From: Candidatus Kaiserbacteria bacterium CG10_big_fil_rev_8_21_14_0_10_47_16
Lineage (GTDB): Bacteria; Patescibacteriota; Minisyncoccia; Phycocordibacterales; UBA918
Assembly: GCA_002773395.1 (NCBI GenBank)
Contig: PFBI01000006.1
Location: forward strand, 156,657-220,656
Length of the DNA stretch: 64,000 nt
Reading direction: 5' to 3'
This document shows positions 7,505 through 56,338 of this stretch, piece by piece. Each line of letters opens with the position of its first letter. Positions within the stretch are counted from its first letter, which is position 1. The translations under genes and the position numbers were made by a program. Below the pieces are notes generated by a model. The model was not told where the DNA came from, ran no database searches, and saw only the letters and a list, made by a program, of their open reading frames with translations.

Positions 7505-7549
7505 TAATACAATCCTACGCCACAGGCGTAGGATTGTATTATTATTTTT
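7503..7549 (+). terminator. rho-independent terminator after rbfA
   Basis: Perfect long stem aatacaatcctacgcc/ggcgtaggattgtatt followed by a T-run. Confidence 0.7.
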
Positions 7550-7741
7550 GTGCGCGGGAGAGGACTTGATTCTTACAGAATCTGTTCAGGCTGCACCACA
7601 AGAGTACTTTGATTTTCTAAAACGCAAGCGTTAAGAAAATCTGGTCGTATGATATTTTTCATACCTCAAAATATCGACAACCTTTTCAAGTCCTCTCCAT
7701 ACAAAGAAACACCAGAGAGACTCTGGTGTTTCTTTACTTTG

Positions 7742-7823
7742 TGCGCGGGAGAGGACTTGAACCTCCACGGATTACTCCACCAGTTCCTAAGACTGGCGCG
7801 GCTACCAATTACGCCACCCGCGC
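7742..7823 (-). tRNA. tRNA-Leu (anticodon TAG), type II with long variable arm
   Basis: Manual cloverleaf on the reverse complement: acceptor GCGCGGG/CCCGCGC, anticodon loop CTTAGGA, long variable arm, T-loop TTCAAGT. Confidence 0.8.
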
Positions 7824-8009
7824 ATATTTGTGACCGGTGCAGAATATCATGATATGCGAGTATCGTCACGGGTTTTGTGTATGTCATCACGAGTCACTAA
7901 GTCGCTACGCTCATAAGTGCTGGCGATCCCGCCTCGTCTGTGGCAAAGCCGCATGACTCCGGCTCGGACAAGCTAAAATCCTGACGCAGGTCAGGATTTT
8001 AAACGCTTG

Positions 8010-8397: not shown

Positions 8398-8469
8398 GGC
8401 CAGGTGGCGAAGTGGTAACGCTTCGGTTTGCAAAACCGACATGCACGGGTTCGAACCCCGTCCTGGCCT
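8398..8469 (+). tRNA. tRNA-Cys (anticodon GCA)
   Basis: GGCCAGG-TG-GCG AAGTGGTAA CGC-T-TCGGT TTGCAAA ACCGA...ACGGG TTCGAAC CCCGT CCTGGCC T. CCA is not encoded. Confidence 0.8.
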
Positions 8470-8535
8470 CAAACGAAACGGAGTGAAGTGCAGAGGTCAG
8501 GACAAAAGCGACAACAGTCGCTTTTGTTGAGGTTC

Positions 8536-8616
8536 GAACGGCGGAGCGATGTTTTGGCTATTTCTAATGCCAAAACCGCGAGCCGCGTCCAGCATTCTTA
8601 TGAACGTAGTGAATTA
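8536..8616 (+). ncRNA. conserved ~80-nt hairpin element downstream of tRNA-Cys (copy 1 of 2)
   Basis: cggagcgatgttttggctatttctaatgccaaaaccgcgagccg...cttatgaacgtagtgaattag. It is near-identical to 56216-56300. The stem gttttggc/gccaaaac becomes gtttcggc/gccgaaac in copy 2 (compensatory change). Confidence 0.4.
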
Positions 8617-8682
8617 GAAAAAGCGGGACGAACCCCGTCCTGGCCTCAAACGAAAAACTGCCAGTATACTGGCAGTTTTTTG

Positions 8683-30951: not shown

Positions 30952-31022
30952 GGAATAATCTCCTTCTTTTCCAATGTTTTTATAGCATATTTGGATAGTT
31001 TGTCAATATACGGTGCTTGGGG

Positions 31023-31367
31023 CCGGGCTCGGTCACGAATCACTAAGTATATTTTTGCTACGCTAAAATATACTTAGTGTTCTCGACCCGTGAAAAGCAA
31101 TTCAATATTGCTTTTCACCACGCCTCCCTCGTCCACAGGACGCGGCGCTCCGGCTTTCGAGCCGAGGCTCGGCGTCTAACTCTAGTTCACTACGTTCACA
31201 AGAGTTACCTGCCCGAGCATTTGAATTCTTGCATTAGAAATAGCAAAAATATACAAATGCTTTTCGAGCCCGACCGTAGGACGCGCCTGCGTCCTACTCC
31301 CCAAGCACACATACACAAAAACCGCCCTGAGGCGGTTTTTGTGTATGTGTGCTTGGGGCCGGGCTCG
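31023..31367. repeat. ~307-bp insert next to tRNA-Phe, flanked by an exact 19-nt direct repeat of the tRNA 3' end (gtgcttggggccgggctcg at 31023-31041 and 31349-31367)
   Basis: The direct repeat is visible in the sequence. The interior is hairpin-dense and includes a 28-bp perfect palindrome at 31299-31358 that incorporates the tRNA acceptor end. Confidence 0.5.
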
Positions 31368-31422
31368 AACCGGCGACCCCTTCCTCTTCAGGGAAATGCT
31401 CTACCAACTGAGCTACCCAAGC
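31350..31422 (-). tRNA. tRNA-Phe (anticodon GAA)
   Basis: Reverse complement: GCTTGGG-TA-GCTC AGTTGGTA GAGC-A-TTTCC CTGAAGA GGAAG-GGGTC-GCCGG TTCGAGC CCGGC CCCAAGC A. Confidence 0.8.
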
Positions 31423-43424: not shown

Positions 43425-45518
43425 CTAAACGTCGACGTTCGCAAGACGAGCATTGGACTGGATAAACGACTTCCGGTTTGATACGTCTGTCCCCATCAAG
43501 ATATCAAATACCTTATCTGCTTCCTGTGCATCTTCAACGTGAACCTGCTTAAGTAAGCGGTTTCCTGGATTCATAGTCGTTTCCCAAAGCTCATCGGGGT
43601 TCATTTCCCCCAGTCCCTTATATCGTTGGATACGAACACGCGACGCCTTCTTTGTTGACTCTACTTCTTCATCTTCCTCTGGAAGCGGTTCTGGTTCCTC
43701 ACCATCTTCACTCACGACCTCAACTTCAACAACCTCTTCCCCGAGACTCTTGAGTATCGCAACCTTCTCTTCATCGGTATATGCGTAGTGGGTTTCTTTA
43801 CCCTTTTGAATCTTATAGAGTGGCGGTTGCGCAATGTAGAGATACCCACCATCAATAATCGGACGGAAATATCGGAAAAAGAGTGTGAGGAGCAGCGTAC
43901 GAATGTGGGCTCCATCGACGTCCGCATCCGTTGCAATGATGATTTTGTGGTATCGAAGTTTTGTAATATCGAATACGTCACCAATAGCAGTGCCGAGCGC
44001 AACGACGAGATTCTTAATCTGTTCAGAGCCAAGCATGCGGTCAATACGTGCACGTTCAACGTTGAGAATTTTTCCACGGAGCGGAAGGATTGCCTGTGTA
44101 CGACGATCACGTCCCATCTTTGCAGAACCACCCGCAGAGTCTCCCTCTACAATGAAGAGCTCTGACTCTTCAGCACTCTTTGTCTGACAGTCTGCGAGCT
44201 TACCTGGCAGCGTCATTCCTTCGAGAACTCCCTTACGGAGTACCGAGTCTTTCGCTGCCTTCGCTGCCTTACGCGCCTTTACCGCAATAACCACCTTGTT
44301 GATGACTGCCTTTGCGTCATCAGGGTTCTCTTCGAGGAACATTGAAAATGCTTCACCAAAGACTGACTCCACCGCACTGCGCGCTTCTACAGAACCAAGC
44401 TTCGCTTTCGTTTGGCCTTCAAACTGAATCTCGGGCATCTTTACCGATACCACCACCGTGAGACCTTCGAGCACGTCGTCACCGGTAAATCCATCGTCTT
44501 TATCTTTAATCAGATTGTTCTTCTTTCCGTACGTATTGAGTGTTCGCGTGAGTGCCGTCTTGAATCCAGTGATATGAGTCCCGTGTTCACTGTTATAGAT
44601 ATTGTTTGCAAACGCAGAAATGCGTGCAGAAATATCGTCTACGTACTGAAGCGCTATTTCTACCGACTGTACGTCCGAATCATACGGCTCATCAATTGTT
44701 CCCTTTTCAACATAAAAAATATTCTTGTGTACCGGTTTCTGATAGTGGTTATTGAATGCCACGAGTGACTTCAGTCCTCCTTCAAAATAGAAGGTTTCAC
44801 TTGGCACCTCGTGTTTTTCATCCGCAAGATAAATAACATCTTCGAGTGACTCGGGGTCAAGCTTTGCATCAGATTCGCGTGCGTCGATTACAGAAAGGCG
44901 CATTCCTTTTACGAGATATGCTTGCTGCCGCAAGTGAGCAACGATTCGCTTCCATTCATATTTAATCTCTGTAAAGATAACAGGGTCAGCTTGGAACATG
45001 ACAATCGAACCATTGAATTTTGTGGCAGATAGTTTCTTCACTCGAGCCTTCGCCTTACCAATGTTGTACTCCTGCATGTGGTGCCCACCATCCTTGTGCA
45101 CATCAACGCGCATGTGCGTAGAGAGTGCATTTACTACAGAAGAGCCCACACCGTGAAGACCTCCTGATACTTTGTATCCTGTGTCCTCCCCACCGAACTT
45201 ACCTCCGGCATGGAGCGTTGTCATAATCGTCTCGAGTGCAGACACTTTTGTCTGCTTGTGAATATCAACAGGAATGCCGCGCCCGTTGTCGACGACACGA
45301 ATGTAGTTATCAGGGAGAAGTGCAACTTCTACTCGGTCAGCAAAACCACCCATCGCTTCATCGCGTGAGTTATCAAAGATCTCCCAAATAAGGTGATGGA
45401 GTCCATCGGGCCCTGTAGTACCGATGTACATACCCGGTCGCTTTCGCACTGGTTCGAGACCTTCTAGGATTTGGATTGATGAAGCACTGTACCCTCCTTT
45501 TTCAGATTTTTTTGCCAT
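43425..45518 (-). CDS. gyrB: DNA gyrase subunit B
   Basis: MAKKSEKGGYSASSIQILEGLEPVRKRPGMYIG..., GHKL ATPase, Toprim (EGDSAGGSAK). Confidence 0.95.
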   Translation of the reverse strand: MAKKSEKGGYSASSIQILEGLEPVRKRPGMYIGTTGPDGLHHLIWEIFDNSRDEAMGGFADRVEVALLPDNYIRVVDNGRGIPVDIHKQTKVSALETIMTTLHAGGKFGGEDTGYKVSGGLHGVGSSVVNALSTHMRVDVHKDGGHHMQEYNIGKAKARVKKLSATKFNGSIVMFQADPVIFTEIKYEWKRIVAHLRQQAYLVKGMRLSVIDARESDAKLDPESLEDVIYLADEKHEVPSETFYFEGGLKSLVAFNNHYQKPVHKNIFYVEKGTIDEPYDSDVQSVEIALQYVDDISARISAFANNIYNSEHGTHITGFKTALTRTLNTYGKKNNLIKDKDDGFTGDDVLEGLTVVVSVKMPEIQFEGQTKAKLGSVEARSAVESVFGEAFSMFLEENPDDAKAVINKVVIAVKARKAAKAAKDSVLRKGVLEGMTLPGKLADCQTKSAEESELFIVEGDSAGGSAKMGRDRRTQAILPLRGKILNVERARIDRMLGSEQIKNLVVALGTAIGDVFDITKLRYHKIIIATDADVDGAHIRTLLLTLFFRYFRPIIDGGYLYIAQPPLYKIQKGKETHYAYTDEEKVAILKSLGEEVVEVEVVSEDGEEPEPLPEEDEEVESTKKASRVRIQRYKGLGEMNPDELWETTMNPGNRLLKQVHVEDAQEADKVFDILMGTDVSNRKSFIQSNARLANVDV

Positions 45519-45596
45519 AGTATAAAAAATGAGCAAACTGCTCAGACCCTTAGATTATAGCAAATAATACATAAAAAGCATACCGAAAAATGATGA

Positions 45597-45635
45597 AAAA
45601 GCCCTGAAATTGCAAGGCAATTTCAGGGCTTTTTC
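45597..45635. terminator. bidirectional terminator (13-bp stem), ancestral rpoD terminator
   Basis: aaaaa-gccctgaaattgc-aag-gcaatttcagggc-ttttt. Confidence 0.65.
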
Positions 45636-45836
45636 TAGTACGATTTGAGCGTCGTCGAGCTTGGAGAAACAATGAGCTATGATAATAGCGATTATGTTTC
45701 TCCAGTCGTCGAGCCAAAAGAAATTAAGGAAATGCCAATGGCATTGACTATAATTTCTCTGTGCCAGACCTTTTGAATTTTTGACAAATTCCCTGTCAAA
45801 AATTCAAAAGCAAATCGTACCTTAGTACGATTTGAG
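45636..45836. repeat. ~173-bp insert at the extreme 3' end of rpoD, flanked by a 14-nt direct repeat (tagtacgatttgag at 45636-45649 and 45823-45836) that contains the rpoD K-S-Y-stop codons
   Basis: The interior has two copies of gtcgtcgagc, an inverted repeat ggagaaaca/tgtttctcc, and a perfect 17-bp palindrome cttttgaatttttgaca-aattccc-tgtcaaaaattcaaaag (45773-45813). Confidence 0.45.
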
Positions 45837-47168
45837 ACGTCTGGCCTTCTCGTGTTGCCGAATCTTCTCGAGGGCTTTTGCCTCAATCTGACGAATACGC
45901 TCTCGCGTTACACCGAACTCTTTCCCTACCTCTTCGAGTGTATGGTAAGTACCATCAATGAGTCCGTGACGCATTTCAAGAATCTTCCGCTCCTTCTCTG
46001 ACAATGTGTCGAGAATTTCCTGCATCTGATCCGCAAGAATACGGTGTGCAACTTCTTGGTCTGGAGAGATGATTTTGTCGTCTGAGATAAAGTCAGAGAG
46101 ACGTGAACGATCATCATCGTCAGCTCCCACCGGCAGCTCGAGTGAGATGGTATCCTGACTAATCTTTTCAATTTGGTAAATCTTTTCTACTTCAACGTTC
46201 ATTTCAGTTGCGATCTCTTCTGGCATTGGATCACGCCCAAGATCTTGTGCTAACCGTCGTGACACCTGCTTGTACTTCGCCATTGTTTCCACCATGTGCA
46301 CCGGAATACGAATCGTACGCGATTGGTCAGCGAGCGCTCGGGTAATTGCCTGACGAATCCACCATGTTGCATAGGTCGAGAACTTGAATCCCTTTTCATG
46401 ATCAAATTTATCAACAGCCTTAAAGAGACCGAGGTTCCCTTCCTGAATAAGGTCGAGGAGTGTTAAGTCGGGAGACCGACCAACATACTTCTTTGCAATC
46501 GAAACCACGAGACGGAGGTTTGCGCGCGCAAGCAAGTTGCGAGCCTCTTCATCCTCCTCAATAATACGCTTCGCAAGATCTCGCTCTTCCTGTGCTGAGA
46601 GGAGTGGGTACTGTCCAATTTCTCGGAGGTACATTTGAATAGAGTCGTGTCCGTTATCAGAACGTTTGTAGACGTTGCGCTTATCGTGCAACATGTCGCT
46701 CACGTCATCCCCAAGCATTCCTCCGCTTTCAAGAATATCAACACTTGCCGTCGCGAGACGTTCGTAGAGATCTTCAAGAAATGGTACGTCGCGCTCAATC
46801 TGTGGAAACGCTTTGAGAATTTCGTCGTATGTGACATATCCACGATCACGCCCTGCTTGCAGGAGCTGCTGCGCTTTACTTTCGTTTTCTTTTTCGAGCT
46901 TTGTGCGTTTCTTCGGCTTCGCAGGTACGACGCGCTTTGCCGCTTTCTTTGCAGTTTTCTTAGGTGCTGTCTTCTTTACTGGCTTCTTGGTAGCTTTCTT
47001 CACTACCTTCTGAGTCTTCTTTTTGGCTACTTTTTTAGTAGTTTTCTTCGTTGTTTTTTTGGCAGTTGTGTTTTTAGCTTTCTTTGAAGCCACTTTTTTT
47101 GTTGCCTTTTTTACGGTTTTTTTGACCGCTTTTTTTACTACTTTTTTTGTTGCCTTTTTGGCAGCCAT
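45822..47168 (-). CDS. rpoD: RNA polymerase sigma-70 factor with about 100-aa lysine/alanine-rich (AKK-repeat) N-terminal extension
   Basis: Regions 2-4 (...[18 protein letters not shown]..., ...[24 protein letters not shown]...). N-terminus [21 protein letters not shown].... Confidence 0.9.
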
Positions 47169-47223
47169 AGTGAAGCCCACTATACCTTACACCAGAGAAA
47201 AGTCCAGAGCCCCGAGGATTCTC

Positions 47224-48933
47224 TTAAAGGGTAATCGTAATATGTAACTGATGTTGCGAATCCGTCATTTCACCAATCAAGGCTGGGATATCGTCCGAGT
47301 CTCCTCGTCGCTCCGCTTCTTGGATGCGTGAGCGGATGTCTGCAGCACGTCTTCGTGCCATAAGTCTCGCACACTCGGTCAGTCGATCTGAAAGTTCTTC
47401 ACGCAATTGCCGATCACTATAAGCACTAAACTCCTCTTCGAGTGTGAAGGCGAGTTTATTACGTCGTCCAATATCTGAATGTATTTCTTCGGTGATACCG
47501 AGTGTTTGTAAATGTTTCTCAAGTGCTTCCCCGAGTGTTTTTCGGTCGGAGGACAAGAGCAGGTCGCGCATGACAAGGAAATAGGTGACCAAATCCTCGT
47601 ACCGTGTGTTTGTCTGGACTGGCTCTTGCGCCATCGCGCGATACTCATCTGCCGGTTCTCCTTTTCCTTCCTCATTCAATCGCTCCACTTCAAAATGTAT
47701 CCCCTCTTTTGTTGTCTCGAGTGCTTTGGCAATAACGTTTTCAAAATGTTCACGGTCAATGCGATTTGGCATTCGTGCAAGGATCGGAAGAATTTCTTCT
47801 CGCACCTGTAGTTTATAGGTACGATCATCCTTCAAATCTCGCTTCAGTACACTAAGCAAGAACTCAACAACATGGAGTGCTTCCCCCACCATGTGTTTAA
47901 AGCGCTGCGAATCTTCTTTAATAATATCTGCCGGATCTTTCCCATCTTCAATATTCACTACCTTCACGTCCATACCGCGCGCAAGCATCATACCCGACGC
48001 ACGCTTCACTGCTGCAATGCCTGCTCTATCTGAATCAAGCGCAAGTACCGCTCTATTTGAGAGTCGCTGTAGTAGCTCAATATGATGCGCTGTAAGCGCA
48101 GTGCCTGAAACCGCAACCGTATTGCTATAGCCTGCTTGGTGCGCGAGCACAAGATCAAACTGTCCCTCCACAAGGATAGAAAAATCGAACTTACGAATGC
48201 TCTGCTTCGCCTTATCGTACCCAAAAAGAATATCTGACTTTTGATAAAATTCTGTCTCTGGAGAGTTTACGTACTTTGGTGTTTCTTTATCTTGCGAAAG
48301 CGTTCGTCCTGAGAAGGCAACGATGCGCCCACTGTTGTCGGCAATCGGAAACATAATGCGGTTTCGAAATACATCATAGGGCTCTTTGCCTCCGTCGGCT
48401 GTTTTGATAAGGCCTGCACTCTGTATCTGCGCATCCGTATACCCCTTCTCTTGCAAGTGCTCACGGAGTGAACGCCATGCATCAGGCGCAAAGCCAATGC
48501 GCCACGTGTGTATCGTCTTACCAGAGACACCGCGATCCAAGACGTAATCCTGTGCACCTTTGGTATTTACTCCCTGCTGAAAGAAGAATTTCGTTGCGTC
48601 TTCAATGAGTACATACTGCGTATCACGCGCATCACGCTTTTGCGGATCTTCTTGTACGAGTTCCACTCCCGCCTTTTCTGCAAGAATAGCGAGCGCTCCT
48701 TTGAAATCGACTCCCTCCATCTTTTCTATAAACGTAAAGACATCTCCCCCTTGATTCGATGAAAAACAATAGTACATCCCGCGGTCCGGAGAAACATAAA
48801 ATGAGGGTGTCTTCTCAGTCGTAAACGGTGACTTCCCTTTATAATTCTTCCCCGCTTTGTGAAGCTCGACATATGACGAAACCACATCGAGAATGGAGAG
48901 TCTCTCTTTGATTTTCGTTACATTGTCATTCAT
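47224..48933 (-). CDS. dnaG: DNA primase (zinc-finger ligand positions substituted)
   Basis: TOPRIM (...VEGQFDLV...), preceded by GKNYKGKSPFTTEKTPSFYV...YYCFSSNQGGDVFTF where the canonical CPFH...CFGC ligands read S,T,C,S. Confidence 0.85.
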   Translation of the reverse strand: MNDNVTKIKERLSILDVVSSYVELHKAGKNYKGKSPFTTEKTPSFYVSPDRGMYYCFSSNQGGDVFTFIEKMEGVDFKGALAILAEKAGVELVQEDPQKRDARDTQYVLIEDATKFFFQQGVNTKGAQDYVLDRGVSGKTIHTWRIGFAPDAWRSLREHLQEKGYTDAQIQSAGLIKTADGGKEPYDVFRNRIMFPIADNSGRIVAFSGRTLSQDKETPKYVNSPETEFYQKSDILFGYDKAKQSIRKFDFSILVEGQFDLVLAHQAGYSNTVAVSGTALTAHHIELLQRLSNRAVLALDSDRAGIAAVKRASGMMLARGMDVKVVNIEDGKDPADIIKEDSQRFKHMVGEALHVVEFLLSVLKRDLKDDRTYKLQVREEILPILARMPNRIDREHFENVIAKALETTKEGIHFEVERLNEEGKGEPADEYRAMAQEPVQTNTRYEDLVTYFLVMRDLLLSSDRKTLGEALEKHLQTLGITEEIHSDIGRRNKLAFTLEEEFSAYSDRQLREELSDRLTECARLMARRRAADIRSRIQEAERRGDSDDIPALIGEMTDSQHQLHITITL

Positions 48934-56170: not shown

Positions 56171-56215
56171 CAAACGCGTTAAAAAGACCTCCCCTGCGGG
56201 AGGTCTTTAGCGTTT

Positions 56216-56300
56216 GTGAGCCGGAGCGATGTTTCGGCTATTCCTAATGCCGAAACCGCGAGGCCGGGGAGGAAGTGCTTATGAGCGTAAGCGAATTAGC
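56216..56300 (+). ncRNA. conserved ~80-nt hairpin element downstream of tRNA-Gly (copy 2 of 2)
   Basis: ccggagcgatgtttcggctattcctaatgccgaaaccgcgaggccg...cttatgagcgtaagcgaattag; preceded by a long terminator hairpin (56176-56214). Confidence 0.4.
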
Positions 56301-56338
56301 AACTTGACCCCAATATAGAAAACGTGTGACCCATCCTT

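Follow-up and report, generated by a model that had tools for sequence, protein, structure and literature searches.

A gene-less hairpin module with a second rpoD end recurs at the 3' end of rpoD in Paceibacteria

The rpoD gene, which encodes the primary sigma factor, ends in a small hairpin-rich insert within the 64,000-nucleotide stretch of DNA analysed here (the window), which derives from an uncultured Patescibacteria genome (Paceibacteria, or 'Parcubacteria'). We found that this insert belongs to a previously undescribed module family that occupies the rpoD end in Paceibacteria (Patescibacteria). Modules of this family recur at the same site in related genomes, share a covarying fold, occur as tandem units and as remnants, are distributed patchily, and lie between two copies of the rpoD end that have both evolved as coding sequence. 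We found no description of such elements in Patescibacteria in the literature. The explanation we favour, with roughly even confidence, is that these are a new family of miniature, gene-less hairpin modules, each carrying a surrogate rpoD end; recombination at that site would account for their gain, loss and stacking, and they would pass between lineages.

The initial annotation of the window had reported a duplication of the final rpoD codons, and we confirmed an exact 14-nt direct repeat (TAGTACGATTTGAG) at 45636-45649 and 45823-45836. On the coding (minus) strand, the copy at the end of the gene reads CTCAAATCGTAC-TAA (…CTC AAA TCG TAC TAA) and the downstream copy reads CTCAAATCGTAC-TAG; the latter adjoins the terminator, as had also been described, with the G of its TAG forming the first base of the 45595-45635 stem. 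Beside the downstream copy lies GCTCGACGA, which had been missed and which encodes Ala-Arg-Arg; the duplicated segment, hereafter X, is therefore the last seven codons plus stop (ARRLKSY-stop), 24 nt in length. This full duplication becomes visible in the window once a nested insertion is allowed for: without that insertion and a 2-nt indel, the downstream copy (X2) reads GCT CGA CGA CTC AAA TCG TAC TAG. The insert between X2 and the copy that completes the working gene (X1) is about 187 nt long and contains a single copy of a structured module of roughly 105 nt; its parts are listed in Table 1. The internal direct repeat noted earlier is present (GTCGTCGAGC, at 45651-45660 and 45705-45714), as is the inverted repeat (10 bp, 45662-45671 / 45695-45704). 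A palindrome with 17-bp arms also exists, but its true arms lie at 45770-45786 and 45794-45810, 3 bases to the left of the 45773-45813 first assigned to it. Two further parts had gone unnoticed: a third, inverted copy of GTACGATTTG at 45811-45820, which forms a hairpin with the stop codon in its loop, and GTCTGGC at 45763-45769, which is complementary to the GCCAGAC of the Ala-Arg codons. The nested hairpin within X2 (45651-45714) has 10-bp perfect arms, a 23-nt centre and a flanking 10-nt direct repeat (GCTCGACGAC); its arm sequence has no other copy in the window, and it looks like a separate tiny insertion.

Table 1. Coordinates of the rpoD module, the adjoining features and the duplicated tRNA ends in the window
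Feature	Position	Strand	Description
rpoD, primary sigma factor coding sequence	45822..47180	-	open reading frame (ORF); stop at 45822-45824; database gene call starts at 47168
Bidirectional intrinsic terminator	45595..45635	.	19-bp stem, A-run on one side and T-run on the other; homologous to the terminator closely 3' of rpoD in L202-L205
X1, final seven codons and stop of the working gene	45822..45845	-	GCC AGA CGT CTC AAA TCG TAC TAA; pairs with a' and b'
a', inverted copy of the Lys-Ser-Tyr codons	45811..45820	-	10-bp hairpin with X1, stop codon in the 4-nt loop; helix 98% paired, 4 pairs double-changed
P2, perfect 17-bp hairpin	45770..45810	-	7-nt loop (GGGAAUU, sense); third arm of a three-way junction; covariation, minimum-free-energy fold
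b', GTCTGGC	45763..45769	-	complements GCCAGAC of the X1 Ala-Arg codons; closes the three-way junction; 7 pairs, 4 double-changed
P3/P4 (M2 module), second hairpin	45719..45759	-	GAGAAATTA / TAATTTCT stem, internal loop UAGUC / UCC, apical hairpin AATGCC-ATT-GGCATT
X2, displaced and decaying earlier rpoD end	45635..45714	-	GCTCGACGAC (45705-45714), nested hairpin, second GCTCGACGAC (45651-45660), G, CTCAAATCGTAC-TAG (45635-45649)
3'-end duplications of tRNA-Leu(UAG), tRNA-Cys and tRNA-Phe	7547-7823, 8398-8655, 31013-31422		complement near the first copy

A chance repeat or an assembly artefact has next to no probability as the source of this arrangement. The exact repeat is short (14 nt), but an independent public record, a 396-kb contig from the Joint Genome Institute that encodes the same sigma factor, matches the window base for base over the ~6.5 kb compared, and the architecture recurs in assemblies from other samples. 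No further copy of TAGTACGATTTGAG occurs in the window, where ~0.3 matches are expected even with 2 mismatches allowed; we rejected chance as the basis of a repeat that is unique in 64 kb and unexpected by chance. An identical 448-aa protein with the Sigma70 r1-r4 Pfam domains is on record, and a search for strain polymorphism by way of this identical protein returned only one distinct place.

We compared the window with other loci and contigs (labelled L004, L202 and so on), the rpoD loci being taken from one genome per species. At the rpoD stop the parts follow the order X, a', P2, b', a short linker, P3/P4, a second ARRLKSY-stop and a terminator, and this order is present in L009, L010, L011, L013, L014, L015, L016 and L018, with a variant form in L006. 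In all, the architecture stands after the rpoD stop in at least 11 Paceibacteria genomes besides that of the window, whereas close relatives do not have it. Successive X copies begin ~125 nt apart, which is the length of the repeating unit; a metagenome contig (L124) carries two tandem units and three X copies, and L014 also carries two units. In the window and 10 other genomes, a gene-less unit lies between direct repeats of the target 3' end, and it is the copy on the element side that completes the gene. In L001, L003, L017, L020, L021, L024, L026, L206, L207 and L213, by comparison, there is no insert and a terminator comes immediately after the stop.

In the rpoD tree, carriers are interspersed with non-carriers, and the two carriers of one unit form, type B (the window and L015), are far apart. 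L018 and L026 share a Na+/H+ antiporter gene as 3' neighbour, and of the two L018 alone has the insert; L011, L012 and L013 share a UvrD-like helicase gene in this position, and L012 alone lacks the insert. X2 and the downstream flank of L011 align to the native end and flank of L012. The L013 locus equals that of L014 without one circularly permuted unit, and units therefore recombine through internal homology and not through X alone. The closest relatives that share the dnaG-rpoD-gyrB order (L202-L205, 91% protein identity) have a spacer that is 164 nt shorter, with a homologous terminator ~60 nt after the stop. These loci bear out the initial proposal that the insert lies at the rpoD stop codon and that the downstream copy is the displaced earlier end, and relatives proved to be polymorphic for the presence or absence of the insert, so the refuting condition named in the initial annotation does not hold. 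The terminator at 45595-45635, which has the G+C-rich hairpin and following U-run that define an intrinsic terminator, is what ended rpoD before the insertion. L202-L205 retain X (differing by one synonymous change), a' and part of the 5' strand of P3 but not P2, b' or X2, a state that is either a decayed unit or a simpler earlier one; the same minimal X:a' pairing is found in L004. Conservation of X between the window and L202 is not exceptional (20/21, with neighbouring bins at 14-20). Downstream X copies are decaying in the window, L015, L016 and L018 and in the last copy of L124, which fits older insertions in these cases.

The two rpoD ends that flank a unit differ in a way that points to coding function in both. 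Ten adjacent X pairs differ at 49 codons in total, and the difference is synonymous at 45 of the 49, compared to ~25% expected under random single-base change; the multi-base swaps AGA/CGC and CGT/AGG are among these differences. Both copies therefore served as real gene ends until recently and, both being former coding ends, one of them therefore arrived with the insert from another lineage. The synonymous differences exclude a target-site duplication made at the time of insertion. They also bear on the idea of a local replication error, in which snap-back template switching at palindromes made the direct-inverted-direct triple in place, with no mobility involved. An X, an inverted X and another X with hairpins at their junctions are the signature of such events, the inverted copy lies directly 3' of a terminator hairpin at the tRNA-Phe, tRNA-Leu and 5S genes, and the stems are almost purely Watson-Crick. 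Local copies would, however, begin identical and drift randomly, whereas the observed differences are synonymous, and the same conserved non-target core stands between the copies in many genomes. We thus regard replication error as highly improbable for these loci, with the qualification that template switching could explain the first origin of a unit, not its distribution. The covariance-model matches and the rpoD tree already suggest that modules in different genomes share descent and pass from lineage to lineage.

Support for a shared fold came from an alignment of 12 units, which we compared with 500 shuffles and with controls in which the partner columns were slid by 1-3. In the consensus fold, the last 21 nt of rpoD pair with a' and b', P2 stands between these two segments, and P3/P4 follows. 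Over its 46 pairs, 92% of cells were paired and 31/46 pairs had changed on both sides; none of the 500 shuffles reached any main measure, and the slid controls paired at 35-46%. The window sequence alone gave the same fold (-116.6 kcal/mol, z = -14, by RNA folding), and a covariance model (R1) matched the window at 45718-45809 with 27.4 bits and E=0.005. In the lower stem of P2, all pairs (6/6) showed compensatory changes and the sequence was not conserved. The initial annotation had offered the 17-bp palindrome as a plausible operator, an identity we rejected: the palindrome has no conserved half-site sequence and no adjoining promoter, and no promoter-like site was found in 45400-46000. Because pairing is kept while the sequence varies, and no promoter is near, we take P2 to be a structural stem. 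Sequence conservation is confined to other places, namely the P2 apex of most units (CUCCCUNGGUAGGUCGAA, motif M1) and the internal loop of P3/P4 (UAGUC … UCC, motif M2). In type B units, M1 is replaced by a plain long stem with a GGAAU-containing loop.

These results could also be read as an old, vertically inherited functional RNA of the rpoD 3' untranslated region (UTR), with a basal helix formed from the last codons, lost repeatedly, in which X2 is kept because the RNA needs it. We consider this doubtful, if the least improbable of the alternatives. In its favour, pairing between the last codons and downstream sequence is compensated in two unrelated insert families and is found as well in the minimal state of L202 and L004. 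No terminator was found between X1 and X2, P2 lacks a U-run, and the X1:a' hairpin followed by CUUUUGAAUU is a weak terminator match; since no terminator separates X1 from X2, the module is expected to be co-transcribed with rpoD, as an RNA of this kind would be. The synonymous swaps from AGA to CGC and from CGT to AGG, however, break the pairing with b' and keep the protein, which argues that X2 was constrained as coding sequence and not as an RNA partner; because several swaps break the a'/b' pairing, it is unlikely that X2 was kept merely for that purpose. X2 is moreover decaying in the window, L015, L016, L018 and the last copy of L124, and one module type occurs in distant rpoD clades. 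The strands themselves also speak against a 3'-UTR RNA. Stems are nearly all Watson-Crick, with G-U pairs at 2-3% and about as frequent as A-C mismatches (11 vs 12), folding of the antisense strand is no weaker than that of the sense strand, with no asymmetry in the summed energies of the two strands (-571 versus -606 kcal/mol), and the shared M1-M2 motifs occur in both orientations. The module does not look like a typical one-strand RNA structure. The data fit hairpins that act in DNA, single-stranded or as cruciforms, or on both strands, or palindromes that are held perfect by template switching during replication. A possible pseudoknot, in which unpaired GACU in X would contact AGUC in the P3/P4 loop, showed no covariation in an alignment judged by eye. 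Only tRNAs and one 5S rRNA reached the Rfam gathering threshold in the window and 13 related loci, and relaxed Rfam searches gave only generic hairpin matches far under threshold.

Several observations bear on which copy of X came in. The a' and b' segments match the upstream X better than the downstream X, and match it perfectly in both L124 units, L009, L010 and L013. Compared to the native end of insert-free L026, the repaired X2 of the window is identical at 23/24 positions, and its GCT CGN CGN codons are shared with L206 and L207; the GCC AGA CGT codons of X1 are common to the type B carriers and remnants L015, L004 and L202, which are spread over the rpoD tree. From the a'/b' match and this sharing of codons, we regard X, a', P2, b' and P3/P4 as the unit, placed at the 5' edge of a resident X, and X1 as probably the copy brought by the module.

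The mobile hairpin module that we favour would work as follows. A unit would be set in frame against the 5' edge of the resident gene end (24 nt), so that the working rpoD would now end in the unit's own X (45822-45845); X, a'/b' and P2 form a three-way junction, and a small loop holds the stop codon. The resident end, X2, would be left without use against the old terminator, and would then have gained the 2-nt indel and the nested hairpin. X1 would thus be the incoming copy and units would move between lineages; units could be gained, lost or multiplied in tandem when the short X repeats, or parts of units that are homologous, recombine with one another. As nothing is encoded in the unit, the agent may be the general recombination of the host after DNA uptake or an enzyme acting in trans. 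The X:a'/b' pairing could be a folded single-stranded DNA or RNA form that the module needs, or a palindrome maintained by template switching.

Five points weigh against such a module. No excised or circular form, no within-species empty-site allele and no enzyme was seen. Ordinary homologous recombination would work poorly on a 24-nt repeat at only 70-85% identity. An insert of a different type, type D, lies inside the X:a' helix without a second X, and the pairing may thus be a feature of the host and not part of a mobile unit. The X and a' of L202, without the rest, fit a decayed unit and, equally well, a pre-existing stem-loop that received the rest later. Finally, asking of the nearest insert-free relative which copy is native gave mixed results, in a test that has little power because all relatives are ~80% identical in rpoD DNA.

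The layout of an insert-completed gene with a far displaced end has precedents among larger elements. Prophage e14 completes icd, with a C-terminal pseudo-copy (icdC) at its far end; the two ends differ mostly synonymously, and loss of the prophage by recombination between them gives a chimeric working gene (PMC13626634). The rpoD module resembles e14 and phage 21 at icd of E. coli in its substitute 3' end, displaced pseudo-copy and synonymous differences. It differs from e14, which is ~15 kb long and has its own integrase and excisionase, in being a ~125-nt unit that encodes nothing, in having a substitute end that base-pairs with the unit itself, and in stacking in tandem. A second comparison is with the cis-mobilizable elements (CIMEs) of Streptococcus thermophilus, which reportedly adjoin ICESt1 and ICESt3 at the fda 3' end. 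CIMEs measure kilobases, come from integrative conjugative elements and rely on a tyrosine integrase. Like them, the rpoD unit is non-autonomous, has att-like repeats at the 3' end of a housekeeping gene, lacks a recombinase and shows tandem accretion (L014, L124); unlike them, it is a set of hairpins without a known autonomous partner or enzyme. The rpoD unit is a member of neither the e14 nor the CIME family.

The e14 precedent raises the alternative that the insert is a scar, the attL/attR and arms left by a large phage or island, equipped with an integrase, that formerly occupied the rpoD 3' end and has mostly been deleted. An insert-completed gene, a far displaced end and synonymous differences are indeed the layout of e14 at icd (PMC13626634), and of tRNA-integrating islands as well. 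We nevertheless consider a scar very unlikely. More than 10 genomes contain a ~125-nt unit made of the same parts, and tandem units occur too, a pattern that separate deletions would not yield; moreover, no further-out copy of ARRLKSY-stop occurs in up to 4 kb on either side of any fetched rpoD locus. The insert has no conserved ORF, and no integrase lies near rpoD, whose neighbours are dnaG and gyrB (dnaG 47224-48933, rpoD 45822-47180 and gyrB 43425-45536 on the minus strand in the ORF list). No autonomous partner was found in the flanks (up to 4 kb on either side) of ~30 rpoD loci or in viral contigs; in five scans of viral contigs for the module motifs and for patterns of the rpoD end, every match was due to chance or lay in coding sequence, and none was relevant to a scar.

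Beyond rpoD, the hairpin motifs occur in other settings. A metagenome scan with M1 gave 120 matches, of which ~90% were chance matches in high-GC coding DNA and ~14 were real, on AT-rich contigs resembling those of the candidate phyla radiation. Most of the real matches have a compact form (class 2) of ~76 nt, in which M1 sits in a GTTCC…GGAAC stem and M2 follows directly, without X or a'/b'. Copies of the class-2 repeat (GTTCCAG…CUCCCUYGGUAGGUCGAAU…GGAAC, then AAAUUC…AUAGUCGCUACGCUCG…CAUUU) were seen in L004 (2050-2130), L109, L136, L139, L154, L180, L189, L111 and L119. Class-2 copies are intergenic, lie in either orientation, often just 5' of start codons (efp, an mreB-like gene, dnaG), and the dispersed copies show no flanking duplication. 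With a covariance model built from the unit and class-2 forms, these forms scored 36-96 bits and L015 scored 23 bits, and there was one copy in the window (45718-45809). On viral contigs L070 and L072, an M2-like AGCGCTAAGCAACTCCTTAATTAA lies directly beside an M1-like CCCCCCTGGTAGGTCGAAAA, in reverse order relative to the units.

At a 5S rRNA gene in L185 (9321-9752, minus strand), the gene and its terminator are followed by an inverted 5S 3' end, two tandem M1+M2 units and a direct 14-nt copy of the 5S end and trailer, with further partial copies of the 5S end in between. Here the 5S end plus trailer, AACATTAAGTTTTC, recurs after the units, and the inverted copy, GAAAACTTAATGT, follows the 5S terminator; the layout therefore has the same hairpin motifs and the same direct-inverted-direct order with a different target. 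The initial annotation had drawn a parallel with inserts at tRNA genes, and that parallel holds: tRNA-Leu, tRNA-Cys and tRNA-Phe in the window have exact 3'-end duplicates of 23, 27 and 19 nt, 177-336 nt downstream. As at rpoD, a hairpin divides the complement in two at tRNA-Phe and tRNA-Cys; the tRNA-Phe arrangement runs from the tRNA through a terminator hairpin, GTGCTTGGGG, a hairpin, GGTCGGGCTCGAA and the core to the second copy. The tRNA-linked core is non-coding (GGAGCGATGTTTYGGCTATTYCTAATGCCRAAACCGCGAG … CTTATGARCGTAGYGAAYTAG), lies 3' of five window tRNA genes (7824-8008, 8471-8628, 31033-31348, 56172-56330), is unrelated to M1 and M2 (CTTATGARCGTAGYGAAYTAG) and has no Rfam match. After tRNA-Gly and tRNA-Lys it has no detectable second 3'-end copy, and it occurs 3' of rpoD in L210 (about 2530-2650) in the opposite orientation. 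The genes that adjoin the window tRNA inserts are housekeeping genes, with no recombinase beside the inserts. The broader suggestion of one recombination system that targets gene 3' ends generally is conjectural, as the rpoD and tRNA cores differ, the targets have no common motif, and no recombinase adjoins them in the window.

Two other kinds of insert were found at rpoD. Type D inserts are ~100 nt long and lie between the rpoD stop and a complement of its last codons (the first ~140 nt after the stop in L007, L019 and L058; 2434-2560 in L212); they show compensatory changes in the pairing and have no second X. In L008, L012 and L013, another hairpin-rich repeat (…GGTGTAATACCTCGC…GCCGCTATGCTCGAAGC…) was seen in either orientation in the spacers downstream of rpoD.

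A complement of the target at so many gene ends suggests one more alternative, in which insertion is guided by base pairing: the split a'/b' complement would be a programmable guide to the 3' ends of conserved genes, used by an enzyme in trans with the hairpin as a scaffold, and the spare gene end would render insertion harmless. We rate this as unlikely, somewhat below the possibility of a 3'-UTR RNA. A complement of the 3' end is present at rpoD (types A/B and D), at tRNA-Leu, tRNA-Cys, tRNA-Phe and tRNA-Gly in the window and at the 5S gene of L185, that is, at four targets with three unrelated cores. It is split around a hairpin alike in rpoD units, tRNA-Phe and tRNA-Cys, and sequence is retained at the P2 apex CUCCCUNGGUAGGUCGAA and in the P3/P4 internal loop, against variation in the complementary parts. 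No partner protein was found, however, and the dispersed class-2 copies of the hairpin have no complementary segments. The complement in L185 is ~170 nt away from the conserved hairpin, and complementarity next to a hairpin can also come from template switching at quasi-palindromes or from selection on the fold.

Compared with other small mobile DNAs, the M1-M2 pair resembles repetitive extragenic palindromic (REP) sequences and bacterial interspersed mosaic elements (BIMEs), miniature inverted-repeat transposable elements (MITEs) and palindromic elements derived from IS200/IS605 in being short, multi-copy, hairpin-forming, protein-less and present in either orientation; those elements, in contrast, either end in terminal inverted repeats and make short target duplications or go in beside a fixed 4-5-nt site with no duplication, and have neither a 24-nt substitute gene end nor a long complement of the target. 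We rejected a MITE because the flanking repeat is 24 nt long and has synonymous differences and because the ends of the unit are not mutual inverted repeats. An element of IS200/IS605 type was rejected on the 24-nt repeat that flanks the units and on the left flanks of dispersed copies, which, read by eye, have no fixed tetranucleotide. The units are like the attC sites of integrons and the attP of CTX phage (used by XerCD) in depending on structure over sequence, in having a hairpin that rebuilds a target-like duplex and in occurring at gene 3' ends or in tandem arrays, but they have no attC core sites, no dif-like site and no nearby integron integrase, and their targets have no common sequence. 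An integron attC was rejected after a pattern search of 12 units, which found one stray GTTRRRY and no RYYYAAC.

Patescibacteria genomes are among the smallest and most streamlined bacterial ones, and rpoD encodes an essential housekeeping sigma factor. The modules suggest that streamlined genomes, too, host active, very small selfish or regulatory DNA, and they offer a concrete marker of DNA exchange between lineages. At least three structured element families that had not been described are represented: the A/B units (motifs M1 and M2), the type D inserts and the tRNA-linked core. Should the complementary segments direct insertion, they would constitute a new principle for targeting, with potential as a tool; should they act in RNA, they would form a new kind of 3'-UTR structure made partly of coding sequence.

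Two minor features of the locus complete this description. A plus-strand ORF at 45672-45776 (34 aa, with GGAG upstream) runs across P3/P4 and the nested part of X2; we take it to be a chance ORF because the nested part is specific to the window and has no counterpart in other genomes. At the gene's opposite end, rpoD has a long N-terminal extension (46900-47170) that is rich in lysine, alanine and threonine and differs in length among relatives, and within it a 20-nt repeat occurs twice, 48 nt apart, at 47092-47111 and 47140-47159.

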